Notes: generated by a model not told the origin, from the letters alone. A DNA stretch of 64,000 nt from an uncultured Planctomycetota bacterium (GCA_963823665.1 CAWGMQ010000006.1:864001-928000); one strand, 5' to 3'; numbered from the stretch's first letter, positions 44,921-59,455 are shown. Program-made: numbers and translations.

Positions 44921-46776
44921 CTACCAGGAGCCGTCGCTCTCGTTCAATCGCTGCTTCATCCTGAGCAGCAGGAACAAGCGGTACGGCACCATTTCCCCGC
45001 GGCCGTTCTTGACGAACCGATTCCAGTAATCCTCCGCGACCCTCTCGAATCTCCCCTCGGCCTGTACATCGTCGCCCATGATGACAACTAGGTTCTCCAG
45101 CGCATCCGCGATCGACACACCGTTCTGCCTGGCGACGTCGTTGTTGATGACCAGCTCATATCGCGGGTAGTGGCCGGCGAGGAAGGTGAAGAGGCCCTCC
45201 AGATTCTTGCGTTTCAACAGGTCATCCATGAACGTCTCCGCCCCACTTCCGGGCCGCCCGTCACCGTGCGAGTTCGTCTTTTCCAGGACGCGTACGGAGA
45301 AACCCCCGGCTGCGACGAAAACCGACACCGCGGGCGGCTCGAAGAACTCGAGATCGACATTCAACGTCCGGCTTTTTTCCTCGAGCGTCTCGATGATCTG
45401 ACGCGAGGTCAGCTTGCGGTCGGACCGATCCTTCAAATGGATGAGACAGGTCCCCGCGGTCGAATCGCGGTCCTCCGTCCGGAGCTCGTAACCCGCCAGT
45501 GAGGAGACCGAGGTGATCCCGTCGATGCCCCTGGCGATCGCACCCAGCTCGTGGCACCTGGCGCTCGTGTATTCGAGTGTCGAGTCCCGAGGAGTCTCGA
45601 TGACCGCATAGATCATGTCCCGGTTCTCGAGCGGAATGACCTCGAAGTTCATGCCGCGAGGGAACGCCGCCGCCTTCAGCTCCTCGAGGTCCTTCTCGAG
45701 CGCCTCGATGGCGATGGCGGCGCTCCAGCCGGGCAGAGGCTTCAGGACGATCGTCGTCGCGGGGTGCCCGTCGATGTCCGTGGAAATATCGAAGAACGGG
45801 GGCGCCATGTCCACCCGGCCGACGTCCTTGAGTCGCAGGATCTTGCCGTCGGGACTGGCCTTTAGAATGATTTTTTCCCATTGCTCGGGCTTGTTGTAGC
45901 GGCTGGGGCTGATGTGAATCAGCTCGTACTCCTTCGACTGCCACGTCTTCGTGGCCCGGTCGAGTTGCGAGGCGTCCAAGGTCGACGGCGTGAGGGCCTG
46001 GATGATGTCGTTGGACGACAGGTTGTGGGCCCGCAAGCGGTCGGGGTTCAACCGGATCCGCAGGGCGGAGCGGCGGCTGGCGAGGTTCCTGAGGACATCC
46101 ATGCCCTTGATGCGCCTGGAGAGGTTCCTGGGGATATCCATGCCCTCGATGCGCCTGAGACGGGGCATGACGACGACGTTCGCGAAGTTGACGAGATCCT
46201 TCTGGTGGGCGTCGGGGGCGGTCGAGTAGACGTTCACATACACCAGCTTGCTGTCCGGCGCGAAGATGCGGCCCGTGCTCCCGACGCCGCGGTCACCCCC
46301 GGCCTGCGGTGGCTTCTCCGCCTTCGCCGCGGCGTCCGTCCCGTCGGGCAAGGAGATTTCGATGATGAGATTCGGCAACGCCTTGAGGATCTGCGACTTG
46401 CCCACAGTGGTGACCTGGGTATGGTCGGCCGCCAGCACCTTCAGGCTCGTTATCCCTCCCAGGTGAACGAGTCCGGCATCGGTGATCCACGTACGGTCGA
46501 GCCGAAGATTCTGGAGCCGAGGTAAGCGACTCAGGTGCGCCAGGCCAGCGTCGCCAACCTTCGTGCGCGCCAGCGTCAGGTCCTCCAGGCTCGCGAGTCC
46601 CTCGAGAGATGCCAGGCCGGCGTCGCCGACCTGCGTACTCGCAAGTTCCAGCGATCGGAGCTTGGCCAGGCCCTTCAGGTGGACCAGCCCCGCATCGGTC
46701 ACCGGCGTGCGCCGCAGCGACAGGAACTCAAGGCCAGTCAGCGCTTCGAGGTGAACCAGCGCGGCATCCGTGATCG
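44921..46776 (-). pseudogene. 5'-truncated leucine-rich-repeat protein fused to AcrB/RND periplasmic-domain segments
   Basis: LxxLxLxxTxVTDAGLxHL repeats; RIRLNPDRLRAHNLS, ILRLKDVGRV, FVKNGRGEMVPY; no TM bundle; 5' end replaced by the repeat stutter. Confidence 0.75.
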
Positions 46777-46882
46777 GAGAAGCCAGAGAAGCCAGACACC
46801 CAATCTCTGAGGAGCCAGAGAGGAGCCAGACACCCAATCTCGAGGAGCCAGACACCCAATCTCTGGTTCCGAGGAGGAGCCA
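46777..46882 (+). repeat. Stuttered tandem copies of GAGGAGCCAGACACCCAATCTC
   Basis: Three CCAGACACCCAATCTC copies interleaved with partial GAG(G/A)AGCCAG units. Confidence 0.85.
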
Positions 46883-47025
46883 GGGAATTCAAGACACCCA
46901 TCCGTTGTCACGGCCCTCCGCATCCATTCATTCGTGGCACGCAAATTCGGTGCAAAACCACGGCCTCTGGTCATTTCGAGCACGCAGAAGGCCAGTGCCC
47001 GACGCTCGGCAAACGGTGGGTGTCT
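46883..47025 (+). mobile_element. ~145-bp inverted-repeat element (MITE/REPIN-like), copy 1; right arm interrupted by intron 1
   Basis: AGACACCCATCC...GGTGGGTGTCT; arm completed by GCCATCC at 49038-49044. Confidence 0.85.
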
Positions 47026-49037
47026 TTGCGTCAGGAAAAGCTCGAGAAAGGGGGAAGTGCCTCGAAACACAGAAACCTTTCATCGCGACCCTGCGGGTTA
47101 ACGAATCCCGCCCGGCAGAGCCTGGCCGGCAGCCGGAAGCAAGTCTTGCGTGGGGAGGGGTGACCCTCACTGCGAAGCGTAGACAGCGAGTCCCCATGCC
47201 ATGCTATCGAGCCCCGAAATACTCATCGTGGGAGCCTCCGTTGTAGACACAAGCGGGGGCCGCGTCGACACGCCGCAATGGCCTGGCGTGTTCGGTCCTG
47301 CCGGGGTCCAAGAACATGGCGCAGGGACGCGAGGGTTGCTCGGGAACCTGAGAGCCCCATCCGTCTCCACTGACATTTCCGGCTCGGGAACCGGAATACC
47401 AACTCCCCGGCCCACGACCCCGCGTCGGGTCGCTGGGAGCGAACAGGACGCAAGGGTGGTATCGCCACACGAAGGCAACGAAGTGCGGCGAAAGGGGCGG
47501 ATGGGAGTCGGAGCGTCTCGTAGTACCGTTGAAGCCGGGGAACCACTCCGAGGGACCCGGTGGAGGGAAGGAGACGCCATGTCACACAACCGTTGGAGGG
47601 AAACATGGCGGGTGCATCGGAACCCGTGGACGTGTCCACGAAACAACAACGGATAGCGGAACTCGCTCGGCGAAGCCCGGAGATGGGATTCACATCCCTG
47701 GGGCACTTCATCGACCTCGATTGGCTGCTCACAGCTTACTACCGGACCCGCCAAGACGGGGCGGTGGGCGTAGACGGACAAGATGGCGAGGCCTACGCAG
47801 CGAACCTGGTCCCGAACCTACGGTCGCTGCTGGAACGAGCCAAGTCCGGTACGTACCACGCACCGCCTGTGCGGCGAGTGCATATCCCCAAGGCAGGCTC
47901 AGCGACCGAAACCCGGCCACTGGGAATCCCGACCTTCGAGGATAAAGTGCTCCAGCGTGCTGTCGTGATGGTTCTGGAGGCGATATACGAGCAGGACTTC
48001 AAGAACTGCTCGCATGGCTTCCGGCCCGAGCGATCGGCACACACTGCGTCAGAGAGCCTGTGGCAACAGACGATGAACATGAAGGGCGGATGGGTAGTGG
48101 ATGTGGACATTCGTAAGTTCTTTGACACGATTGACCACGGCCATCTACGCGACTTCCTCAAGCGTCGGGTGCGAGACGGAGTGCTGCTCCGGCTCATCGG
48201 CAAATGGCTCAATGCGGGCGTCTTCGAGAACGGGTGCGTTACGCACCCCGAAATGGGGTCGCCACAAGGGGGTGTGATCAGCCCGATCCTTTCGAATATC
48301 TTCCTGCACTACGTGCTGGACGAGTGGTTCGAGCGGGAGGTTCAGCCTCGGATGATGGGCAGATCGTTCTTGATCCGCTATGCGGACGACTTCGTCATGG
48401 TCTTCTCATGCGAGTCCGACGCACGGCGTGTGATGAATGTGTTGCCCAAACGCTTTGAGAAGTACGGCTTGACCATCCACCCGGACAAGACGCGGCTGGT
48501 GCCGTTCGAGCGGCCATCGGACCGTCCCAAACCGGAAGGCGGACCCCCGCGAACTCCACCAGGGACATTCGACCTGCTGGCGTTCACGCATTACTGGGGT
48601 CGCTCCCGGCAGGGTCGCTGGGTGGTGAAGCGCAAGACGTCCAAAAGTCGATTTCGCCGAGGCCTGCGAACGTTGGCGGACTGGTGTCGCAAAAATCGAC
48701 ATCTACCGCTCAAGGTGCAGCACCGGATACTAGGTCAGAAACTGCTAGGCCACTATGCCTACTACGGAATCACCGGCAACTCCAAAATGTTGTCACGGTT
48801 TCGCAGTGGTGCCACCTGGCTCTGGCAGCACTGGCTGTCGCGCCGCGGGCGCGGCCGTCGGATGACATGGGAACGGTTCGCTCGGTTCCTGAAGCATAAA
48901 CCGCTTCCGGCAGCGATTGCGATCCACTCAGTATGCCGTCTCGTAGCGAACAAGTGACATGACGAGCCGGGTGCCTTAATTGGGCAAGCCCGGCTCTGTG
49001 GGAGCCTTGGGGGAGCGATCCCCCAAGGCGACCCGGC
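47026..49037 (+). mobile_element. Group II intron 1 (bacterial class E-like, RT-encoding)
   Basis: 5' TTGCG; EBS1 AGACAC 47245-47250 pairs with exon GTGTCT; D5 48964-48996 (AGC triad); D6 ends GACCCGGC. Confidence 0.92.
47605..48957 (+). CDS. ltrA: Group II intron reverse transcriptase/maturase without endonuclease
   Basis: GGAGG RBS; RPLGIPTFED, DIRKFFD, GSPQGG, RYADD; domain X GHYAYYG; no HNH. Confidence 0.95.
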   Translation: MAGASEPVDVSTKQQRIAELARRSPEMGFTSLGHFIDLDWLLTAYYRTRQDGAVGVDGQDGEAYAANLVPNLRSLLERAKSGTYHAPPVRRVHIPKAGSATETRPLGIPTFEDKVLQRAVVMVLEAIYEQDFKNCSHGFRPERSAHTASESLWQQTMNMKGGWVVDVDIRKFFDTIDHGHLRDFLKRRVRDGVLLRLIGKWLNAGVFENGCVTHPEMGSPQGGVISPILSNIFLHYVLDEWFEREVQPRMMGRSFLIRYADDFVMVFSCESDARRVMNVLPKRFEKYGLTIHPDKTRLVPFERPSDRPKPEGGPPRTPPGTFDLLAFTHYWGRSRQGRWVVKRKTSKSRFRRGLRTLADWCRKNRHLPLKVQHRILGQKLLGHYAYYGITGNSKMLSRFRSGATWLWQHWLSRRGRGRRMTWERFARFLKHKPLPAAIAIHSVCRLVANK

Positions 49038-49781
49038 GCCATCCTGAGATCGATGGGTGTCTGCCATCCCTGCGCCAAGAAGCTCGGAAAAGGAGGATCA
49101 TCTCAAATGTGAAACCTTTTAGCGGAACCCTGCGGGTAACCAATCCCGTCCGGCAGAGCCGGGCCAGCAGCCGGAAGTGAGTCTTGCGTGGGGAGAGGCG
49201 ACTCTCACTGCGAAGCGTAGACAGCGAGATCAAACGCTGTGCGATTGAGCCTCGAAATTTTCCCTCTTTGTCCTGAGCCCTCGTCCTTGTCTGACGCGGG
49301 GGCCGAGCCGGGCATTAGCGAAACCTGGACCCACTAGCGTGCCCGGTCAGACCGGGGTCGGAGAACATGGCGAATGATCAGTAGGGTTCCCCGGGAACTT
49401 GGGAGACCTTGTCGTTTCCATCGTGACGGCCGGCCGGAGCACCGGCTTACCAACTCCAGGTTGATCCACAGCTCTGTCCCGAGCTGGTGGGGACGAACAG
49501 GGGACGAACGATGGTATCGCCAAGCGAAGGAAACGAAGCGCGGCGAAATGGACGGCAAGGAGTCGGAGTGCCCCATAGTAGTGTTGAAGCGGGGGAACGG
49601 CCCTCCGGACCCTGTGGAGCGAAGGGGGCACCGCGTTGTGGATGGGAAGTTGGAACCACGCCGAGGACACCGTGCCTCACCAGCGTGTCACCGCGAAACG
49701 ACCTAGTCGTGTGAGGGACAGTGATTCCCCAACGTGACGAGCCGGATGCCTCTTCGACGGGCAAGTCCGGATCTGTGGGAA

Positions 49782-52201
49782 TCGCGAAACGAAGCTGCGG
49801 ATGAGTCTGTTATGACTGGATTTGCAACCAGGACATAACCCGATGTACGACCACCGGAACCCTACCAGGACGTGCGGCCGGAGCAATCCGACCGTGCGAA
49901 GCTCTTGGGACAACGTAACCTCACCTTCGGGTGGTTGGATATCCCGTGAGGGAATCCGGCGACTGCGAACGCCAATGCGGTCGGGGGCCAGGGGTGGATG
50001 GCATGGCTAATCCAGGTGAACTGCCGATAAACGTCGTGAGATCCAACAAGCCAAAGGCGCTGAGAGGCTTGAACCAAAAAGGTACGTGGCCAGGTACAGT
50101 GGGATTTCCCATCCCCTGTCGTCGTCATCCGAGCCACCGGCGGAGAGGCAGAGCCTAAACCATCCGTGATTCATCCGTGGAACGTGGTAAGCCCGTCGCC
50201 CTCCCTTCGGGGTAGGACCGTCGTAAGGCGTCGCCGATGGGGCGGCGGGTGGAGGATGAGGGAGCAAGCCAATGCCGTTCGGTAGTCGATCGGATAGAGG
50301 GTGAGTCCTCCCACGGACGACATCCCCTCACCGCGAAAGCGGTGCCGACTTCCCTCAGGTGTTCCGTCACGAGAGAACCTTGGCCAACCGACTCAGGGAG
50401 ACAAGCAGATATGTCGGCGGCAGAAATGCTTGCTGGTGCGGCTCCCGAGCTTACGCCCGACTGGCACTCCATCGAATGGAAGAAAGTCTGGCGCACAGTC
50501 CGTCGGCTCCAGGCGCGTATCGTGAAGGCTGTTGCGGAGGGCAGATGGAATAAGGTCAAGGCTCTGGTTTATCTGCTCACGCACTCGTTCAGTGGCCGGG
50601 CCCTGGCCATTTTGCGAGTCATCAGTAATTCGGGTGCGAAGACTCCCGGTGTGGACGGAGTTCTCTGGAACACACCGGAAGCCAAGTCGGCTGCTTTCAG
50701 CACTCTGCGTCGGCACGGTTACCAACCGCAACCGCTCCGCCGGGTGTACATTCCCAAAAGCAACGGCAAGCGACGTCCTCTCGGAATTCCCACCATGTCA
50801 GATCGAGCCATGCAGGCATTATACTTGCTAGGCCTCGATCCCATTGCGGAATCTCGAGCCGACGGCCATTCCTATGGCTTTCGGCTGGAACGTCGTTGTG
50901 CCGACGCCCTGGAACAATCTCATATTGTCTTGGGTAATCGGAGCGGTCCAGCATGGATTCTCGAAGGGGACATCAAAGCTTGCTTTGATCGCATCAGTCA
51001 TGACTGGCTCTTGACGCACGTCCCCATGGACCGGCAGTTGCTCGGGCAATGGCTGAAAGTGGGTTTCCTGGAGAAGCACGCCTGGTTCGCCACCACGGAA
51101 GGAACACCTCAAGGCGGGATCATTTCACCCGTCCTGGCGAATTGGACTCTGGATGGACTGCAACGGCTGTTGGCGGAACAGTTCGCCGAGAAGCACGGGC
51201 GACAACGGAAGTTTAAAGTCCACCTGGTCCGCTATGCGGATGACTTCTTGATCACGGGCATCTCAAAGGAACTCCTCCGTGACCAAGTGCAACCTCTCGT
51301 GGCTCATTTCTTGAAGGAACGCGGCTTGGAACTTTCCCACGAGAAAACCCAGATCACGCATGTGGAGGATGGCTTCGATTTCTTGGGGCAGAATGTGCGA
51401 CGCTATCGCTGCGGCAAGGTGTTCACCAAGCCGTCCTTGCGAAACGTGAAGACGTTCTTGAACAAGATACAGGAAACGATCGACGGCTCGGGCAGCCTAA
51501 CGGCAGGAGAGATGATCTGGCGTTTGAATCAGCAGATCAAGGGCTGGACCATGTACCACCGTTACGCGGCGAGCAAGCGCACTTTTACGTACGTGGATCA
51601 CCGGATTTTCCAGAAATTGTGGCGTTGGTGTCGACGACGGCACCAGAACAAAGGCCGGAGGTGGATCAAGGAGAAATACTTCCAGCAAGACGGTTACCGC
51701 CACTGGGTCTTCACCGGTACGCTGTTTGACCAGAAAGGCCAAGGCCGGCCGATCCAGTTGATGGAAGCAGCCAAAGTGAAGATCATTCGTTATGTGAAGA
51801 TCCGGAGCGACGTGAATCCCTACGATCCGAAGTGGGAACTGTACCTGGAAGCACGACTGGGTTGGCAACTGAGCCAAACGCTGGCAGGTCGGGGTCGGAT
51901 CGAATACTTATGGAAGGAACAAGAGGGACGATGCGTGGTCTGTGGTCAACCGCTGCGGATCGCAGAGGAAGACTTGCATCTCCACCATCGCATCTGGCGC
52001 AGCCGGGGCGGTTCTGGCACAGCCGACAACCTGGAGTTGTTGCATGCCAACTGTCATCGGCAGATCCATGTCCAAGAACGACTGACGAAAGCGGCCGCGT
52101 CCTGCGAGGGGCGTTCGTGAAGGCTTGAGCTGCATGAAGGGAAACTTTCACGTGCAGTTCTGAGGGGAGGGGGTGGCGGTAACGTCACCTCCTTACCCGG
52201 C
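49782..52201 (+). mobile_element. Group II intron 3 (CL1-like); inner intron of the twintron
   Basis: 5' TCGCGAAACGAAGCTGCGGATGAG; EBS2 AGATCC 50039-50044; EBS1 TTCCCA 50106-50111; D5 52127-52160; ends TTACCCGGC. Confidence 0.9.
50411..52120 (+). CDS. ltrA: Group II intron RT/maturase with RVT_N and HNH endonuclease domains
   Basis: WHSIEW...[35 protein letters not shown]...HH...GG...NL...HANCHRQIH. Confidence 0.95.
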
Positions 52202-52234
52202 CCCGGGGCGGGCAACCGCCCTGGGTGACCCGGC

Positions 52235-52372
52235 CCCATCCAGTTGTCACGGTCGCCCGCATCCATTCATTTGCGGCTCGCTCGTTCGGCGCAAAACCAC
52301 GGCCCCCGGTCATTTCGAACACGCAGAAGGTCAGTGCCCGACGCCCGACAAAAGGTGCGTGTGTGACATCCC
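52235..52372 (+). mobile_element. Inverted-repeat element copy 2 (left arm cut by intron 2; right arm degenerate and empty)
   Basis: Begins CCCATCC; same core as copy 1; ends GTGTGTGACATCCC. Confidence 0.8.
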
Positions 52373-52698
52373 GGATTGAGGAAGCATCGAACTGAATAGG
52401 CTGCGGGTTGGGCTGCTCTGACCTGCCTTCCCGACGCTCTGTGGAGGCACGTCATGACCGGTAAATTCTTGGCACCTCTGTTTGGGTCATTCGTTCTTTG
52501 CATTTCGCCTCCGGTTTCCGGCCAAGTGCCCACGCCAAAACCAGCAACCGCTCAGCCCGCCGCGCCGAAGGCGGTAGGTTCCCCCACGTGGTCGGCATGC
52601 AGCACGCGGATTCGACGATCCCATCGCCATCGGACGCCCCAGGCCGTATAATCCGAGTGAGATCGCGTCTTCTCGCGTACCCAGACGGAGCATATACC

Positions 52699-53001
52699 AT
52701 GGAGATTCCGGTGCTCGTTGAGCCCGTGGCCGGGAACGGCTATCGCGCCCACGGGAATTCGCCTCTGGCGCTCAGCGCGGAAGGCAGCACACCCGACGAG
52801 GCGTTAGCGAAGTTCCGGGAGCTGCTCTCGACTCACCTGGCCGGCGGCGCCCGGATCGTTTCGGTCGAGGTTCCTTCGACAAAACATCCCCTGGCGCGTT
52901 TTGCAGGCACGCTCCAGCGCGATGATCCACTCGTCCAGTCCTGGAAGGAAGAGATGGCCGAATACCGTAAGCAAGTGGAAGCCGACGCCGATTACCTATG
53001 A
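52699..53001 (+). CDS. HicB-like antitoxin
   Basis: IPVLVEP...GYRA...SAEGSTPDEALAKFRELL; ATGA overlap with the PIN gene. Confidence 0.7.
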   Translation: MEIPVLVEPVAGNGYRAHGNSPLALSAEGSTPDEALAKFRELLSTHLAGGARIVSVEVPSTKHPLARFAGTLQRDDPLVQSWKEEMAEYRKQVEADADYL

Positions 53002-53179
53002 ACCCGCTCGTGCTCGACACCGATATGTTGACGCTCTACCGAGAAGGCGACTCCAAGTAGCGAAAATGGACCTGCGCATCGCCGCGATTGTCCTGCACTC
53101 CGACGGTATCTTGATCACGCGCAACCAGCGGGATTTTGGGCGCATTCCGGGGTTGAGGATTGAAGACTGGAGTAGATAG
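52998..53179 (+). pseudogene. vapC: VapC/PIN toxin with internal deletion
   Basis: LVLDTDML joined out of frame to MDLRIAAIVL...LITRNQRDFGRIPGLRIEDW; about half the normal length. Confidence 0.8.
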
Positions 53180-53226
53180 CGGTCAGATGAGATTCAGGAT
53201 GTCCAACCGGTCAGACCCTCCAAGGA

Positions 53227-53377
53227 GGAATCCAGGCACCGATCCTTTGTCTCACGGCCTCCGCATCCATTCATTCGCGGCTCGCTCGTTCGGTGCAAAA
53301 CCACGGCCTCTGGTCATTTCGAACACGCAGAAGGCCAGTGCCCGACGCTCGGCAAACGGTGGGTGTCTGACATCCCC
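53227..53377 (+). mobile_element. Inverted-repeat element copy 3 (intron-free, empty site)
   Basis: GGAATCCAGGCACCGATCC...GGTGGGTGTCTGACATCCCC uninterrupted. Confidence 0.88.
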
Positions 53378-53379
53378 TC

Positions 53380-53695
53380 GTTTCCGGCAAGTCGTCGCCG
53401 AGGTCCAAACACTCTACGTACGCTTCCGCCAGGGGGCGGGCAACGTACGAGGCGAGCGTGAAGGGCCTTCCTCCGGAGATGTCCGGCACGGACGCCGAGT
53501 CGTAGCGATCCCAAACGGCGTTGCGGATGCCTCCCGGGTCGTGAGGTCCCGGCGGGAAAAGATCGACCAGCAGCACATGGCAGCCAAGACGAAGCGCCGA
53601 GTCAATCTTGTCCACGAACTCTTCCACCGATGAGTCGCGATCTTTATTTGCGGGCGAAACGACCTCCAGGATGGCAACGATTTGATTCCGGCTGG
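53380..53695 (-). pseudogene. Internal fragment of a DUF4058-like protein
   Basis: IVAILEVVSPANKD...HVLLVDLFPPGPHDP...TLASY...GDDLPE, ending at element copy 3. Confidence 0.7.
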
Positions 53696-53698
53696 TAT

Positions 53699-53779
53699 CA
53701 GGAATGCCCGGCGGAAACCGTCGGAGATGCAGTGGTACCAGCGCGTTTTGGACAAGTCGTCGAGGTGGGTGCGAGCCAT
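53699..53779 (-). pseudogene. N-terminal stub of a RAYT-like (Y1 HUH) transposase
   Basis: MARTHLDDLSKTRWYHCISDGFRRAFL resembles the YHCxSRCVRRAFL start of this family. Confidence 0.6.
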
Positions 53780-53969
53780 CGTAAGCAGTGTGTCTCCCAG
53801 GCGATTTTTACGGTTCCACCTTTGCATTCAAACGGGGCCGCAATTACAATTGTCGGCGTTAGTGCGGTCGCCACGCCGCGAACGAACTGGCTCACGTTTT
53901 TCGCCGCTCTGCTGCGACGTTCAGGATCGCTTCGCTCGTGATCGGCAGTCAGCCTGGAGGAGCATCGTC

Positions 53970-55736
53970 GTGGCACGAACTTCCCGAGTGCGAAAAATTG
54001 CGGACATTGAGCTGCTCGAAGGCAGACTGCTCCTCTCCGGAGGCGGTCGTCAGTCGCCCGCACTCGCCCGCTTGCCCGCCTCTCCGACCGTCGCGCCGGA
54101 GTCCGCGCTGACAATCCCCGGAAGCTTCAACGCCAGTGCAACGGGGGCGGCGACGACGGTCACATTTACGTTCAAAGGAAAATACAAGATTTCGGAGTTC
54201 GCGCTCGCGGTGACGCCGAGCTCGGTAATCGCGGCTGTTCCCGTCGTTCTCAACAAGAATGCACAGCCGACGAGCGGCGTTGCCAGCGTGACGGTGACTC
54301 AATTGACGGCCACGGCACTCTTGCATTTCCAGTCCTACCGGCAGCTTCATATCACGATGTTGCCGAAAACGGCTGCGCCCGCGGGCACAATCACCGAGCA
54401 ATTCCTCGCCGCCGATCAACACGCGCTGACGACGCTCGACAACGCCTATCAAGCAGTCGAGTCTGCTGTGCCGGGGACGATCTCATCCTTGATTTCGCCC
54501 AGTTACGAACCGCCCGGCTCAACCACAGTGGGGCCAATCCCGGGAACGACGATGTTTCAACAAATCGCCGCGTTACAGGCGAATCTGAGTCAGCTTCAGA
54601 ATTACGTCGCGCAGGCGGCCGCTGGCGTGCCGGTGATACTGGGAACCGATCGTCATACTCCGATCAAGTTGACGGAGAAGTCGCTTGCGCTTTCGGACCG
54701 GATCCTAATGGCGGAGATTACCGGCGCGGAATCGTCTCCAGCCGAGGCTCGTGTGGAAGACGCGGGCACCAGCAATCCATTCGGCGACATTGCTGTTGCG
54801 CTCGGCAAACTGGCGCCGGCGCTTTCCGGCGCGGCCGCCACGTTCACCGCGATAGGGCTTGGAACAGGCGAATCGGTTCTGCTGCTTGGCGGAGCGGCTT
54901 TATTAAATGTGGCGCTGGTGGCAACCGCGGGACTGGTTTTCGGAGGCGCAATTCTGGTGGTGGCCGGCGGAATTGATCTGGCGCTGGCCGGAAACCCCAC
55001 CACGGCGCAGCTCACGAACCAGTCGCCTGCCGAGATGGCAGCCGCGGCCCAGAACCAGGTTCCTTACACCGCTGCACTGGGATTGGAGCAAAGCGCGATC
55101 CCCTACAACGATGTCAAATCCGCGGACGCCGGCCAGGTCGTGCTTGGCGTCATGGACGATGGGACAGCCGTCTATGAATCCGCCTTCGGCTCGTCGGATT
55201 TGGAACAGTCCGGCGCGAAGGTGACGATCACGAATGTTAACGCGGTGATCGACAGCGAGACCGAGGAGCTCGCGCAAATACTGGGCCTGAATCCGAACTA
55301 TGGTCCCGGCGAAGGGCAAGGCTCTGGCGGCTCGGGATCGGGCGGCGCCGGCGGGGGACAGACAGGCGGTCCGATATCGGGAAGCCTGAGCGGAACATAC
55401 ACGGGGACCGTTGCCGACACGAGCGGTCAAATATTTACTTCCTCGGTCACCGCGAGCAATATCAGCACAGCCGATGGTGAAATTTCCGGGACTGTGACAT
55501 TTGCGCAATACCCATTTGTGCAGGACGACGTGGTAGCGAGCACCGTCCCGGACATCCCGGCGACTCTCTCCGGGTTTTTTACGTCTGAGGGCAGTGCGGG
55601 CGGAGAATTCGTCATCCATCTTTCTGGTGGCGATGCCCCGCTATCGTGGAGCGGCACCGTGACGTCCTCCGGGATCGTGATCAATCTCACAGCCAGCGAT
55701 GGTTCGAGCGCAGGCACAATCAATCTTCAACCGTGA
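53970..55736 (+). CDS. Extracellular protein with LExRxLLS motif and long central hydrophobic region
   Basis: GGAGG RBS plus GTG; IELLEGRLLLS; long Ala/Gly/Leu-rich hydrophobic stretch; beta-rich C-terminus. Confidence 0.75.
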   Translation: MARTSRVRKIADIELLEGRLLLSGGGRQSPALARLPASPTVAPESALTIPGSFNASATGAATTVTFTFKGKYKISEFALAVTPSSVIAAVPVVLNKNAQPTSGVASVTVTQLTATALLHFQSYRQLHITMLPKTAAPAGTITEQFLAADQHALTTLDNAYQAVESAVPGTISSLISPSYEPPGSTTVGPIPGTTMFQQIAALQANLSQLQNYVAQAAAGVPVILGTDRHTPIKLTEKSLALSDRILMAEITGAESSPAEARVEDAGTSNPFGDIAVALGKLAPALSGAAATFTAIGLGTGESVLLLGGAALLNVALVATAGLVFGGAILVVAGGIDLALAGNPTTAQLTNQSPAEMAAAAQNQVPYTAALGLEQSAIPYNDVKSADAGQVVLGVMDDGTAVYESAFGSSDLEQSGAKVTITNVNAVIDSETEELAQILGLNPNYGPGEGQGSGGSGSGGAGGGQTGGPISGSLSGTYTGTVADTSGQIFTSSVTASNISTADGEISGTVTFAQYPFVQDDVVASTVPDIPATLSGFFTSEGSAGGEFVIHLSGGDAPLSWSGTVTSSGIVINLTASDGSSAGTINLQP

Positions 55737-55751
55737 CCGACGGATAGCGAG

Positions 55752-56052
55752 TCACGGCCCAATCGACTTGGCTTTCGGGCTAATCTTGAACGTCGTATTG
55801 CCCGTCAAGAAGAATGCACCCGACGCATCGGTGATGCCCGAGGGTGCCAAGGCGTTGACCTTCAGCTCGCCTCCGTTTGCGAAGCTCTGTTTACCGGTGA
55901 GGATCGTCACACTGCTCGAACCGGCGGTGTAGCTGACCTGGACGGGGATGGGGCTTGTGACCGTCTTCTTCTTGTGTTTCGACTTCACCAGCACGGTGTA
56001 GTTGCCCGCATTGTCGGCAGCCGTGGGGTCTAGCGCCTCGTTGAAGGTGAGC
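55752..56052 (-). pseudogene. C-terminal fragment of a planctomycete extracellular protein
   Basis: LTFNEALDPTAADNAGNY...GITDASG; 5' part missing at element copy 4. Confidence 0.65.
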
Positions 56053-56053
56053 G

Positions 56054-56196
56054 GGGATTCCAGACACCCATCCTTTGTCTCACGGCCTCCACATCCATTC
56101 ATTCGCGGCTCGCTCGTTCGGCGCAAAACCACGGCCTCTGGTCAAGTCGAACACGCAGAAGGCCAGTGCCCGATGCTCGGCAAACGGTGGGTGTCT
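56054..56196 (+). mobile_element. Inverted-repeat element copy 4; right arm interrupted by intron 4
   Basis: GGGATTCCAGACACCCATCC...GGTGGGTGTCT; GGCATCC resumes at 56929. Confidence 0.88.
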
Positions 56197-56928
56197 TTGC
56201 GTCAGGAAAGCTCGAGAAAGGAGGAAGTGCCTCGAAACACAGAAACCTTTCATCGCGACCCTGCGGGTTAACGAATCCCGCCCGGCAGAGCCTGGCCGGC
56301 AGCCGGAAGCAAGTCTTGCGTGGGGAGGGGTGACCCTCACTGCGAAGCGTAGACAGCGAGTCTCCATGCCATGCTATCGAGCCCCGAAATACTCATCGTG
56401 GGAGCCTCCGTTGTAGACACAAGCGGGGGCCGTGTCGACACGCCGCAATGGCCTGGCGTGTTCGGTCCTGCCGGGGTCCAAGAACATGGCGCAGGGACGC
56501 GAGGGTTGCTCGGGAACCTGAGAGCCCCATCCGTCTCCACTGACATTTCCGGCTCGGGAACCGGAATACCAACTCCCCGGCCCACGACCCCGCGTCGGGT
56601 CGCTGGGAGCGAACAAGACGCAAGGGTGGTATCGCCAAACGAAGGCAACGAAGTGCGGCGAAATGGGCGGACGGGAGTCGGAGTGCTCCGTAGTAGCAGT
56701 GAAGCGGGGGAATGGGCCCTCCCAGACCCTGTGGAGCGAAGGGGGTACCGTGTCGCGGACTGGAAGCCGGAACCACGCCGAGGGCATTGGACCTCAGAGC
56801 GCGTCACCGCGAGGCGACCAGATCGTGTGAGGGACAGCGACGCCGCGACATGACGAGCCGGATGCCTTAATTGGGCACGTCCGGATCAGTGGGAGCCCTG
56901 GCGGAGCGATCCGCCAGGGCGACCCGGC
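56197..56928 (+). mobile_element. Group II intron 4 (ORF-less, 732 nt)
   Basis: TTGCG start; EBS1 AGACAC 56415-56420; D5 56855-56887; intact D6 ending GACCCGGC; no RT ORF. Confidence 0.92.
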
Positions 56929-57236
56929 GGCATCCGTGAGCGCCGTCCCAGGGACCAAGTCCGAAGGAAGGGCGGCAGGAAGCCGCCCCTCACCTCACCT
57001 TCGGGATTGGTACTAATGCGCTAAATCGTTCCACTCAATCGTTTCTCCACCAGTAGCTAACGACGCAATCCGGGAATTCCAGTTCACGCTGAACTATTAC
57101 AGGTGCCATTATGGCGCCCAGGGAGTGTCGCTCCGCCGCCGGCTCGTCTATGGCTACGGGAACGGCTCAGTTTCCGACCATGACCGGCGCGATTTGAAGT
57201 ACGCGGCACGGGATGGAAGCCCGCTTGAGGGAGTAG

Positions 57237-58172
57237 ATGATGTCTCTCGCGATAAGACCGTTAGGCGAAGCGGACCTAGACAACGCCGATCGCATCCTCC
57301 GCCTAGCTTTCAATCAGTTCCTTGGTCTCAAGCCACCGACTGACTTTTTTGGCGACTCCGACTACGTTCGAACCAGGTGGCGCACGGCACCAACAGCAGC
57401 TATCGGAGCCTATCTTGATGGTGAGTTGGTTGGGTCCAACTTTCTCACGCGCTGGGGGAGTTTCGGTTTCTTCGGCCCATTGTCAGTGCATCCAGACCGG
57501 TGGGGCGAGCGTATCGCCTCGGGCCTTCTTGAGGCGACAGTTGGAATGTTTACCGATTGGAAAACTGAGGTAGAGGGGCTTTTCACATTCGCGCAGAGCC
57601 CTAGCCACATTCGACTCTATCAAAGATACGGTTTCTGGCCTCGCTACCTAACGATGATCATGAGCAGGCCCGTCGATTCAGCGATCTCCGTGGCAAAGCC
57701 CGCGTTTGAATTAAGTATGAATGACTCCCCGGGTGTTAGAGAGCTGCGCGAATTGATGGAGGAAATTCATCCGGGGTTGGACCTTGAGCGCGAGATTATC
57801 TCCGTTCGAGAACAATCGCTGGGCCAGGCTGTCACGATCCGAGATGAGGGGCTCCTTGGGGGTATAGCGGTTTGCCATGTAGGGCCGAAGACGGAGGCCG
57901 GTGGTGACGCATGTTATGTAAAATTTGGCGGGGTTCGCCCTGGCTTTGGGTCGGGGCCCCGGTTCGACCGCCTTGTCGACGCATGCGACGCAATTGCCAG
58001 CCACAATGGTGTCAGCCGTTTGATTCTCGGAGTAAATGCAGCTTGCTGCCCTGCATACCGCAGACTTCTAGAACGGGGATTCCGCACTGAACTGCAGGGG
58101 ATAGCCATGCATAGAAACGATCTACCAGGCTATTTTCGCTCTGAATCATACGTCGTCTGCGATTGGCGATAG
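57237..58172 (+). CDS. GNAT family N-acetyltransferase (tandem GNAT folds)
   Basis: FFGPLSVHPDRWGERIASGLL; IRLYQRYGF; AYRRLLERGFR; visibly lower GC. Confidence 0.85.
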   Translation: MMSLAIRPLGEADLDNADRILRLAFNQFLGLKPPTDFFGDSDYVRTRWRTAPTAAIGAYLDGELVGSNFLTRWGSFGFFGPLSVHPDRWGERIASGLLEATVGMFTDWKTEVEGLFTFAQSPSHIRLYQRYGFWPRYLTMIMSRPVDSAISVAKPAFELSMNDSPGVRELRELMEEIHPGLDLEREIISVREQSLGQAVTIRDEGLLGGIAVCHVGPKTEAGGDACYVKFGGVRPGFGSGPRFDRLVDACDAIASHNGVSRLILGVNAACCPAYRRLLERGFRTELQGIAMHRNDLPGYFRSESYVVCDWR

Positions 58173-58310
58173 CAACCCTTGAGTACGTAATTTTCGATCG
58201 CGCATTTGCGTTAAACGAGATAATTCTGCTTCCGAGGAATTTAACGAATTGCGGTATTGGAAGCTAGGAGCTTGGGCGGATCTAATCGGCAATAACTGGG
58301 GGGCATCCTA

Positions 58311-58495
58311 TTGGAAGACTCAAAGAAGACCAAGAAGCAGTTGTTAGCGGAATTGGAATTGACTCGGCGTACGAACGCATCTTTGGAGGCCGCAATTAGC
58401 GAACTTCGAAAGAGGCAAAGTTTTGCGGAGGCACGCTATCGGAACCTGTTCAATAATGCCGATGACGGACTTTTCCAAACCAGTCCAGATGGGGT
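58311..58495 (+). pseudogene. N-terminal stub of a PAS-domain sensor protein
   Basis: KTKKQLLAELE...EARYRNLFNNADDGLFQTSPDG, cut at element copy 5. Confidence 0.7.
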
Positions 58496-58502
58496 TTCCA
58501 GA

Positions 58503-58644
58503 GGTTTCCAGACACCCATCCTTTGTCCCACGGCCCCCGCATCCATTCATTCGCGGCTCGCACGCTCGGCGGAAAACCACGGCCTCTGGTCAATTCGAAC
58601 ACGCAGAAGGCGAGTGCCCGACGCTCGGCAAACGGTGGGTGTCT
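58503..58644 (+). mobile_element. Inverted-repeat element copy 5; right arm interrupted by intron 5
   Basis: GGTTTCCAGACACCCATCC (preceded by an extra GGTTTCCAGA)...GGTGGGTGTCT; GGCATCCC resumes at 59377. Confidence 0.88.
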
Positions 58645-59376
58645 TTGCGTCAGGAAAGCTCGAGAAAGGAGGAAGTGCCTCGAAACACAGAAACCTTTCA
58701 TCGCGACCCTGCGGGTTAACGAATCCCGCCCGGCAGAGCCTGGCCGGCAGCCGGAAGCAAGTCTTGCGTGGGGAGGGGTGACCCTCACTGCGAAGCGTAG
58801 ACAGCGAGTCTCCATGCCATGCTATCGAGCCCCGAAATACTCATCGTGGGAGCCTCCGTTGTAGACACAAGCGGGGGCCGTGTCGACACGCCGCAATGGC
58901 CTGGCGTGTTCGGTCCTGCCGGGGTCCAAGAACATGGCGCAGGGACGCGAGGGTTGCTCGGGAACCTGAGAGCCCCATCCGTCTCCACTGACATTTCCGG
59001 CTCGGGAACCGGAATACCAACTCCCCGGCCCACGACCCCGCGTCGGGTCGCTGGGAGCGAACAAGACGCAAGGGTGGTATCGCCAAACGAAGGCAACGAA
59101 GTGCGGCGAAATGGGCGGACGGGAGTCGGAGTGCTCCGTAGTAGCAGTGAAGCGGGGGAATGGGCCCTCCCAGACCCTGTGGAGCGAAGGGGGTACCGTG
59201 TCGCGGACTGGAAGCCGGAACCACGCCGAGGGCATTGGACCTCAGAGCGCGTCACCGCGAGGCGACCAGATCGTGTGAGGGACAGCGACGCCGCGACATG
59301 ACGAGCCGGATGCCTTAATTGGGCACGTCCGGATCAGTGGGAGCCCTGGCGGAGCGATCCGCCAGGGCGACCCGGC
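58645..59376 (+). mobile_element. Group II intron 5 (ORF-less, 732 nt; identical to intron 4 by eye)
   Basis: Same termini; EBS1 58863-58868; D5 59303-59335. Confidence 0.92.
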
Positions 59377-59455
59377 GGCATCCCGTGTTACGATCGGAAC
59401 AACCGTAGAATGTTGCCAGTCTCGTCGTCATCGACGCCGGTTGGAGAACGACATC

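Follow-up and report, generated by a model that had tools for sequence, protein, structure and literature searches.

Group II introns on a short inverted-repeat motif in a soil planctomycete genome: a probable layered retroelement community

Introduction

How do three group II introns come to lie at the same bond in three copies of one short repeat, and what else depends on that repeat? The question is raised by a stretch of 64,000 nt (hereafter the window) from an uncultured Planctomycetota bacterium (GCA_963823665.1 CAWGMQ010000006.1:864001-928000; coordinates are counted from the start of the stretch). The genome is that of a soil planctomycete and is very large, 16.46 Mb in 12 contigs. An initial annotation of the window described five co-oriented copies of an element of ~145 bp, introns in three of them, introns without an open reading frame (ORF) and a further intron inside an intron. 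Here, the introns, their targets and their relatives were tabulated. We read them as a layered retroelement community on one short DNA motif, and we give this reading, with all five of its layers, a probability of about 0.8.

Ribozymes were searched with Rfam at gathering thresholds (49 for RF02005). The genome census combines genome searches with fetched stretches, in which the junctions were tabulated one by one, and the occupancy of element sites was read in the 30 best element copies. Forty genomes of relatives were searched, 24 from the same family and 16 others; the congener G001 is among the forty.

Results

Type A introns at one bond of the repeat

Four RF02005 (group-II-D1D4-6) ribozymes were found in the window, at 47102, 49140, 56272 and 58720, together with one RF02012 (D1D4-7) ribozyme at 49839 and one domain V/VI match (RF00029) at 52125, all on the + strand. 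The RF02005 matches cover the full model (1-225) of the domain I-IV architecture with 138.7, 111.8, 138.4 and 138.4 bits and belong to the introns I1, I2, I3 and I4, respectively. I1 (47026-49037, 2012 nt, UUGCG…GACCCGGC) codes for a reverse transcriptase (RT). I3 (56197-56928) and I4 (58645-59376) are identical ORF-less introns of 732 nt. These three are called type A, and I2 is a type B intron. In the fold of 56851-56928 (z -5.7), a 34-nt domain V with a 2-nt bulge is followed by a domain VI with a bulged GA, its branch A being at -7. The gathering score of RF00029 is not reached by the A or B introns.

The five co-oriented element copies (46884-47025, 52247-52372, 53227-53376, 56055-56196 and 58507-58644, + strand; repeat finder and BLAST) are present as annotated, with a length of ~147 bp. 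Copy 1 runs from its left arm through …GGTGGGTGTCT, and its right arm is split by I1. Copies 4 and 5 are matched as far as I3 and I4. Copy 3 is complete, and its right-arm target is perfect and empty.

I1, I3 and I4 each follow …GGTGGGTGTCT and precede GCCATCC or GGCATCC, and copy 3 reads GGTGGGTGTCT-GACATCC without interruption. At the junctions, the 5' exon and the intron end in different bases, and the intron and the 3' exon start with different ones. Thus, the boundaries cannot slide by one base, and all three introns lie at …TGGGTGTCT^G, exactly the common bond that had been claimed. The exon-binding site 1 (EBS1), AGACAC, is located at 47245-47250 inside the 12-nt loop 47241-47252, and the proposed pairing is correct: it is the exact complement of the exon end GTGTCT. 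By eye, no EBS2/IBS2 or EBS3 was convincingly recognized.

The genome holds 20 type A copies, 14 of them ORF-less and six RT-coding. The 5' exon ends in TGGGTGTCY in 20/20 (19 T and one C), and EBS1 pairs with GUGUCU at 19/20 junctions, the other being the C variant. A BLAST-recognizable element adjoins the junction in 13/20, either as the right arm or as the reverse complement of the left arm. The other seven are at solo arms, at right ends of the RayT-like units described below (L037, L041) or at repeat-like motifs (L035, L040). The 14 ORF-less copies are 96-100% identical, and five of them, at different sites, are identical over all 732 nt.

The RT/maturase of I1 (47560-48957, +, 465 aa) lies in domain IV. 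It matches TIGR04416 with 326.5 bits (cutoff 300) and, in Pfam, RVT_1 only; no HNH hit was obtained, and only ~36 aa extend beyond the TIGR04416 match. This ORF is intact in two of the six RT-coding copies (I1 and the copy at C6:1319998) and frameshifted in the other four. In the copy at C6:1319998, domain VI is interrupted by the nested intron described below. Thus, an intact RT and an uninterrupted ribozyme come together in I1 alone. The RT-coding outer introns differ pairwise at 1-24 positions, and I1 is the most divergent of the six.

All type A copies on contigs C6 and C11 (11/11) lie on the + strand, and the two of them in minus-oriented elements used the left arm. Such a one-strand bias would be expected from an endonuclease-less intron with replication-fork-dependent priming, as is described for RmInt1 and RmInt2.

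The target: a 147-bp element and a RayT-like unit with common termini

The ~147-bp element has at least 43 matches in the genome (101 first-look candidates, 40 scored), and its copies are 82-95% identical. The arms, each ~25 nt, read GGATTC-CAGACACCCATCC… and …GGTGGGTGTCT-GACATCC(C). In the genome, 105 occurrences of the core CAGACACCCAYC stand against one of its reversed control; the target is therefore repeated far beyond chance. Most element matches cover the full query. Six end at query position 142 or 143, which is the end of …GGGTGTCT; five of these continue into an intron and the sixth (L020) into unrelated sequence. Beyond its truncated right arm, L020 reads GTGCG; a further intron was considered there and rejected, as no Rfam match is present. 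The element shows no significant fold beyond the pairing of its arms (z -1.7 and +0.8).

Among the 30 best copies, the right arm carries a type A intron in six, is empty with a perfect core in 12, is empty with a mutated core in nine and ends otherwise in three. Thus 21/30 right arms are uninterrupted with a readable 3' target half, and no occupied right arm has a mutated core. The left arm is intact and empty in 18, occupied in four and mutated in eight (26 unoccupied in total). Two of the four occupied left arms hold type A on the opposite strand, and two hold type B. Genome-wide, then, the type A introns are found mostly in the element family, and the element is free of introns far more often than it is interrupted.

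Pairs of inverted motifs 1.3-1.8 kb apart bracket an ORF, whose full form, P0001, has 410 aa. P0001 has 67 matches in the genome, three intact and many fragmentary, and the motif is found at both ends of the P0001 units L081 and L052. The two ends of the examined copies read GGAACC-CAGACACCCACC… and …GATCGGTGGGTGTCT-GC(G/C)ATCC; the latter is often tandemly repeated and is a type A target. The ~1.8-kb unit and the 147-bp element have a 12-18-nt terminal core in common. The initial annotation took the multicopy element for the niche of the introns. According to the 13/20 adjoining junctions and the 21/30 free right arms this is sound in part, but the niche is the terminal-repeat family shared with the RayT-like unit, not the element alone.

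P0001 contains HLHLVL, presumably an HUH-type motif, and …YVDLNPIRAG, which we take to be the catalytic tyrosine motif. It matches the NCBIfam profile REP_Tyr_transpos (NF047646, REP-associated tyrosine transposase) only in part (E 3e-8, 33.6 bits, below the cutoff of 80). No Pfam hit was obtained at E 0.01, the N-terminal half giving only Y1_Tnp at E 0.26, and no PDB sequence matched at E 1. Homologues are named 'REP element-mobilizing transposase RayT' by JGI and 'transposase [Isosphaeraceae bacterium]' by NCBI. Characterized REP-associated tyrosine transposases (RAYTs) are generally regarded as single-copy, whereas P0001 is multicopy with many fragments. The 147-bp element is small and multicopy and has terminal inverted repeats common to a putative autonomous element, as a miniature inverted-repeat transposable element (MITE) does. 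On the shared termini, we read it as a MITE-like or REPIN-like non-autonomous partner of the RayT-like unit.

About half of the element copies carry 20-35-nt tandem partial duplications of their own ends (L004, L006, L008, L012, L016, L017, L019, L021, L026, L027, L030). Tandem introns are separated by a unit of ~8 nt of 3' exon and 16-26 nt of 5' exon (L040:1779-1804, L034 and window 49038-49069).

Type B introns on the other strand

I2 is 73% identical to I3 and is an ORF-less member of a sister lineage. Its own length of 745 nt is in two pieces, 49070-49781 and 52202-52234, within 49070-52234 (+). The loop homologous to the type A EBS1 reads TGTCTG (49288-49293) and pairs with CAGACA, and the 3' exon CCCATCCAGTTGTCACGG… is the left arm of element copy 2. 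Genome-wide, the type B 5' exon ends in CAGAC(A/G) in 4/6, the EBS1 UGUCUG pairs with CAGACA in 4/6, and the 3' exon starts with CCCAYC in 3/3 readable cases. These exon ends give CAGACA^CCCAYC as the insertion site of type B. It lies six bases from that of type A, on the opposite strand of the shared terminal repeat. In G003, EBS1 and exon covary (TGTCAG with CTGACA). No RT-coding type B intron was found in the genome; the search gave only fragments with 57-61% identity to the type A RT.

The copy in the window starts with C instead of T (CTGCG), and its 5' flank is not CAGACA: the 5' junction of this copy has been rearranged. Of the RF02005 introns of the window, I1, I3 and I4 lie at the common bond, and the initial annotation is corrected for I2, which belongs to another type, lies on the other strand of the repeat and has a non-cognate 5' flank.

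A chloroplast-like intron in domain VI of other introns

The two pieces of I2 are separated by a second intron of 2420 nt (49782-52201, +; RF02012 and RF00029). Comparison of interrupted with uninterrupted hosts sets its borders at 49782 and 52201, …GTGGGAR | UCGCG…CCCGGC | CC(U/C)…, in the 5' strand of the I2 domain VI. Its ORF (50411-52120, +) codes for a protein with the Pfam domains RVT_N, RVT_1, GIIM and HNH, which matches the RT of TeI4h from Thermosynechococcus (6me0_C) over its full length (E 7.3e-181). We take TeI4h to be a CL1/IIB1 intron. According to the RT-X-D/En protein and the RF02012/RF00029 ribozyme, the nested intron is of the chloroplast-like (CL) type, an assignment that does not separate CL1 from CL2.

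Seven full copies, 100% identical over 2414 nt, and one 206-nt fragment are present in the genome, and the RT ORF is intact in 7/7. All seven are complete introns with their own boundaries inside another intron (twintrons), at one bond of domain VI between GGGAR and CC(T/C) of the 5' strand. The claim that an intron here targets introns is thereby borne out for every full copy. The EBS1 UUCCCA (50106-50111) pairs with UGGGAA, or with UGGGAG via G·U. Four hosts are RT-coding type A, one is ORF-less type A and two are type B. The four RT-coding hosts differ at 3-12 positions, and the hosts as a whole come from more than one lineage. In one pair of outer copies with a single difference between them, only one member holds the nested intron. 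Identical inner copies in diverged outer introns indicate recent independent insertions, as in Thermosynechococcus elongatus. The nested intron is found in 4/6 RT-coding but 1/14 ORF-less type A copies (one-sided Fisher ~0.014, calculated by hand on copies that are not independent).

Relatives of the nested intron were found in 8/24 same-family genomes. In G012, G021, G022 and G023, EBS1 and the 5' exon covary as GCAGAC/GUCUGC, CCUAAC/GUUAGG, UGAAGC/GCUUCG and UGCCAU/GUGGCA, respectively, which confirms the EBS1 assignment and the boundaries. At the fetched loci of these four genomes the relatives are at non-intron sites. Thus, retargeting to domain VI is seen only in the genome studied here. 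In a Bradyrhizobium japonicum plasmid (CP126021.1; L091), a second intron matching RF02003 (2560-2730) starts directly after domain V of a type A relative. The 3' end of RF02005-type introns may be a recurrent landing site for other introns.

Paired intron boundaries

In the introns of types A and B and in the nested intron, the first base is U (UUGCG or UCGCG) and the last two are GC. Among RF02005-type relatives, U is the first base in 19/19 readable 5' ends and G the penultimate base in 15/15 readable 3' ends. L062-L064 agree with this pattern, and the B. japonicum relative also starts with UUGCG. One RF02005-type copy, in G011, starts with GUGCG and ends with …GAC. In the CL family, seven loci have both ends readable: four are U…GC (the window, two in G012 and one in G022), three are G…AC (two in G021 and one in G023), and none is mixed. 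Mixed boundaries were found in neither family at any locus with both ends readable (L066, L068-L071, L077, L079, L094-L113). The alternation looks like a natural compensatory exchange between the first and the penultimate nucleotides. No paper describing this pair as a covariation was found in the open-access literature. The CL1 intron UHB.I2 (5'-UUGCG..GU-3') likewise has U1 and a penultimate G; in the accessible text of PMC7923331 it is reported as a single deviation, whereas the pair covaries here with G…AC in relatives of two families.

Class and distribution among relatives

The nearest named relatives of the type A RT are in proteobacterial plasmid introns (52-57% identity); the B. japonicum RT is 52% identical, and its intron matches RF02005. 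For comparison, class labels of reference introns were taken from Tables S1 and S2 of PMC3552965, whose supplements list classes D and g1-g4/F only. Type A was rejected as class D (reference D152 on pBpOF4-01 matches RF01999; RT 32% identical) and as g3/F, 'bacterial F' (Ni.ha.I1 matches RF02003; RT 35% identical). Class E, named in the initial annotation, is a candidate, and the type A RT, without an endonuclease domain, agrees with it in that feature; according to PMC5894124, a class E intron, S.me.I4, is on a plasmid of S. meliloti GR4. Within the text available to the literature search, no published mapping of the Rfam group-II-D1D4 models to intron classes was found.

The element has at least 25 matches in the congener G001, and in the other 39 relatives nothing was found except one weak match of 67 nt. 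Type A-like introns are present in 13/24 same-family genomes and 3/16 others, including ORF-less forms of the same architecture in G014, G003 and G002. At loci of G014, G003 and G021, the 5' exons end in (C/U/C)(U/C)GACA, which is a different repeated target. G001 yielded no type A intron. Its closest intron match (72% identical) is of type B and occupies the left arm of an element, so the association of type B with the element appears to be older. Among the genomes searched, the present one alone shows the type A burst. The relatives in G014 and G003 (L094-L100, L062, L063) share a 5' exon of ~GAAAA(A)TGAnCTGACA followed by CC, and some G014 copies lie between short inverted flanks. These features suggest that both genomes have their own repeated landing site.

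Public sequencing runs

Soil metagenome contigs (X1, X2) contain intron-to-3'-exon junctions of other copies, the junction from domain VI to the nested intron, and an uninterrupted element. These runs may include the source sample, and the contigs are therefore not independent of the assembly. RNA libraries (X10, X11) also gave Logan contigs over the intron, some of them with 0 differences. The word cover by any single run is at most 0.47, and no contig bridges the flanks of the window itself; the runs thus neither confirm nor contradict the local assembly. Among the Logan contigs placed, none spans the whole of 55900-57300. In the X11 RNA contig, placed at window 56898, the 5' strand of domain VI is joined to an I2-type 3' strand of domain VI with no nested intron between them. 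Either a twintron was spliced here, or the contig stems from an uninterrupted copy in another strain.

Remaining features of the window

To the left of copy 1, a tandem array of 22/34-nt units (46777-46883, +; TRF) is made of a variant form, GAGGAGCCAGACACCCAATCTC, of the motif in the terminal repeats. Of the 30 best element copies, four have this left extension as well (flanks of L003, L008, L010 and L020). The 32-nt spacer between I1 and I2 (49038-49069, +), GCCATCC…GATGGGTGTCT-GCCATCC, was compared with the right-end sequences of L081; it is a repeat unit from the right end of the RayT-like unit and holds an unoccupied type A target. Element copy 2, followed up to its intron, extends over 52235-52372 (+; BLAST, L023). 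Its left arm starts at CCCATCC since I2 occupies it, and its right-arm target is mutated (GGTGCGTGTGT) and unoccupied.

On the minus strand, a 644-aa ORF (44921-46855) enters the repeat array at 46777-46855. It has a partial AcrB-family match and weak leucine-rich repeat matches, and its true start is probably downstream of the repeats. Between copies 2 and 3 (52700-53180), a small ORF (to 53001) without a Pfam match is followed by two short ORFs, split by a stop at ~53058, that by eye resemble the halves of a broken PIN/VapC-type toxin gene. The stretch may be a decayed toxin-antitoxin pair.

Discussion

Proposed arrangement

In the base layer, the ~147-bp non-autonomous element and the ~1.8-kb multicopy RayT-like HUH/Y1 unit (410 aa) have the terminal inverted repeats GGAnnnCAGACACCCAyC in common. 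Type A would retrohome into this repeat at …TGGGTGTCT^G by pairing of its EBS1 AGACAC with GUGUCU. As the target is in an inverted repeat, either arm offers a site on one strand, and type A would use the arm that presents the favoured strand. The 732-nt form, derived by a deletion in domain IV, has out-multiplied its parent (14 against 6) and would have to be spliced and mobilized in trans, most likely by the type A RT. Type B, with the EBS1 UGUCUG, would insert at CAGACA^CCCAYC on the opposite strand, six bases away. Finally, the homing site of the CL-type intron, with the EBS1 UUCCCA, would be UGGGAR^CC, within the 5' strand of the domain VI that A and B introns carry. Its insertion breaks the branch-site helix, so the outer intron should fold only after the inner one has been spliced out, and the nested intron may be inhibitory to its host.

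The dependence of ORF-less introns on a helper had been proposed from the window. The numbers agree with it: ORF-less copies outnumber RT-coding ones, and those identical over 732 nt are at distinct sites with good EBS1 pairing. The trans-mobilization itself, of ORF-less A and B introns alike, is what these copies suggest.

A more far-reaching form of the proposal is a three-tier hierarchy. Here the CL-type intron, which has an endonuclease, would be a specialized hyperparasite of the endonuclease-less lineage. It would prefer the RT-coding drivers and, through the break in domain VI, throttle these drivers, which also supply the satellites, with I1 left as the sole intact master. The proposal would further include U1·G(-2) in place of G1·A(-2) across the RF02005-type class and part of the CL family, compensatory in a contact for the second splicing step. 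We regard this extension as tentative, with the odds somewhat against it.

Several points weigh against the layered community. Types A and B, with UUGCG…GC fixed against the empty site, depart from the consensus GUGYG…AY. The I2 of the window is probably dead as a splicing unit, and the 5' exon of L042 is also non-cognate. Splicing and mobility are read from sequence and not seen directly; the RNA-library contigs are a weak hint of expression, as DNA carry-over or other strains may account for them. The intact type A RT is a presumed driver, and other helpers could be the RT of the nested intron or a third group II RT family, which has three copies with open frames of 479 aa and 38-39% identity to the type A RT (G000:C8:613157-614086, C8:128010-128939 and C6:816461-817390). 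The GC skew of the flanks, taken as a proxy of the replication direction, has mixed signs on short stretches. In the base layer, no consistent target-site duplication was found among 30 element flanks, many ends carrying partial tandem repeats of the end itself. The mobility of the element is suggested by its copy number, and the transposase assignment of P0001 draws on a below-cutoff profile match, the HUH and tyrosine motifs and the source annotations.

Alternative explanations

The common junction could have been inherited from a single insertion, if units of element plus intron had been duplicated or gene-converted as DNA. Short tandem target duplications do occur with tandem introns (L040, L034, window 49038-49069), copies cluster at 549-582 kb of contig C11 and in the window, and gene conversion could homogenize the introns. 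However, the flanks beyond the elements differ between copies, with no homology well past the repeat in 30 loci, and I3 and I4 are identical although the elements that hold them (copies 4 and 5) are not. The introns are found in right arms, reverse-complement left arms, ends of RayT-like units and solo motifs, with EBS1 complementary to the 5' exon throughout (20/20). Perfect empty sites stand beside occupied ones, and 0 mutated cores are occupied. We consider duplication very unlikely. That the 147-bp element is itself exon sequence carried along as part of the intron unit is next to impossible, even though the two adjoin in 13/20 type A copies. It is refuted by the intron-free copies (21/30 right arms uninterrupted, 26/30 left arms unoccupied); in addition, no type A intron was detected in G001 despite at least 25 element matches there, and the elements are more diverged than the introns. 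An assembly artefact is scarcely credible as the origin of the nesting. Many repeats of 0.7-2.4 kb are identical, and 55900-57300 is not spanned whole by any placed contig, which a collapsed or chimeric repeat would fit; yet every copy has unique flanks in an assembly of 12 contigs, and short-read Logan contigs, from runs that may include the source sample, show three junction types.

The remaining two alternatives concern what the introns do now and how they find the target. The system could be a fossil, a record of a past burst of introns that no longer splice or move. Frameshifts in 4/6 type A RT ORFs, the interruption of domain VI by the nested intron in 4/6 RT-coding type A copies, the damaged 5' junction of I2 and the 12 perfect targets that are still empty would all be expected. 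Set against these are the five ORF-less copies identical over 732 nt, the seven nested copies identical over 2414 nt with intact ORFs, the intact RT and ribozyme of I1 and, as a weak hint, the intron-matching contigs in soil RNA libraries, some with 0 differences. We judge the fossil unlikely. Recognition of a DNA hairpin, as by class C (IIC) introns at terminators and attC sites, in place of the repeat sequence is quite improbable. The target GGGTGTC-T-GACATCC is an imperfect palindrome, and the inverted flanks of some G014 relatives would also suit such targeting. Here, however, the pairing of EBS1 with the intron-binding site 1 (IBS1) extends over the full 6 nt in an RF02005 ribozyme, the element lacks a significant fold beyond its arms, and G003 relatives with the same 5' exon motif lack an inverted flank. 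The references compared were class D (RF01999) and g3/F (RF02003), with no IIC reference among them.

Significance

The known picture of group II intron biology is unchanged by the layered community; its value lies in the combination and in the clean counts. It would be a compact natural system for the study of niche partitioning among retroelements. One repeat of 16 bp is read on opposite strands by two sibling introns, the satellites have very few intact helper genes to rely on, and an intron of another class lives only inside these introns. Helper specificity, the replication-strand dependence of endonuclease-less introns and the limit that an intron within an intron sets on spread become testable. 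The paired U…GC and G…AC ends in two families offer a ready natural test of an interaction between the first and penultimate nucleotides.

Comparison with known systems

The initial annotation regarded the arrangement as undescribed. This is too strong, since the separate behaviours have been published (PMC4615759, PMC2882425, Table S1 of PMC3552965), as far as the accessible portions of these sources extend. According to the available text on RmInt2 (class D) and ISRm17 in Sinorhizobium meliloti GR4 (PMC4615759, PMC5894124), an endonuclease-less intron targets the terminal inverted repeat of a multicopy transposable element, as here. Both ends are targets, one of them always on the favoured replication strand, and tandem intron copies also occur. 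In the present case, in contrast, the introns match RF02005 whereas the class D reference matches RF01999 (RT 32% identical), and they are hosted by a RayT-like unit and a non-autonomous element of 147 bp. The opposite strand is targeted by a second lineage, most copies lack an ORF, and the tandem copies are 24-34 nt of duplicated target apart, not head to tail.

In T. elongatus (TeI4/TeI3; Mohr et al. 2010, PMC2882425, from the sections accessible), ORF-less derivatives likewise arose by a single domain IV deletion, outnumber RT-coding introns and are mobilized in trans. Families there have diverged in their EBS and insert at a conserved site in an insertion sequence or in another intron. The inner introns are identical and the outer ones diverged, as observed here, but there a single family supplies inner and outer introns alike, and insertion is between two ATGs of the domain IV ORF. 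Here the inner intron is of another ribozyme and RT family, with HNH, and its site is domain VI of the ribozyme. Domain VI is also used by B.t.I4, which is listed 'in RNA domain 6 of B.t.I3' of Bacteroides thetaiotaomicron (Table S1 of PMC3552965), and in the nested introns of Methanosarcina acetivorans the RNA-coding sequence of one intron is the homing site of another (accessible parts of PMC4424553 and PMC2882425). Those cases are single loci or nests of related introns, whereas the nested intron here is at one bond in 7/7 copies, and its hosts are of three kinds, RT-coding A introns, ORF-less A introns and B introns.

Class C/IIC-attC introns at terminator or attC hairpins resemble the present introns in that a multicopy, partly palindromic non-coding repeat is a safe landing site (PMC7923331, text available in part). 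The 6-nt EBS1/IBS1 pairing and the full-size ribozyme differ from class C, and recognition here reads as sequence-based. What is particular to this genome is the combination of these behaviours, sibling lineages on opposite strands of one repeat, strict cross-family homing to domain VI and the covariation of the intron boundaries.

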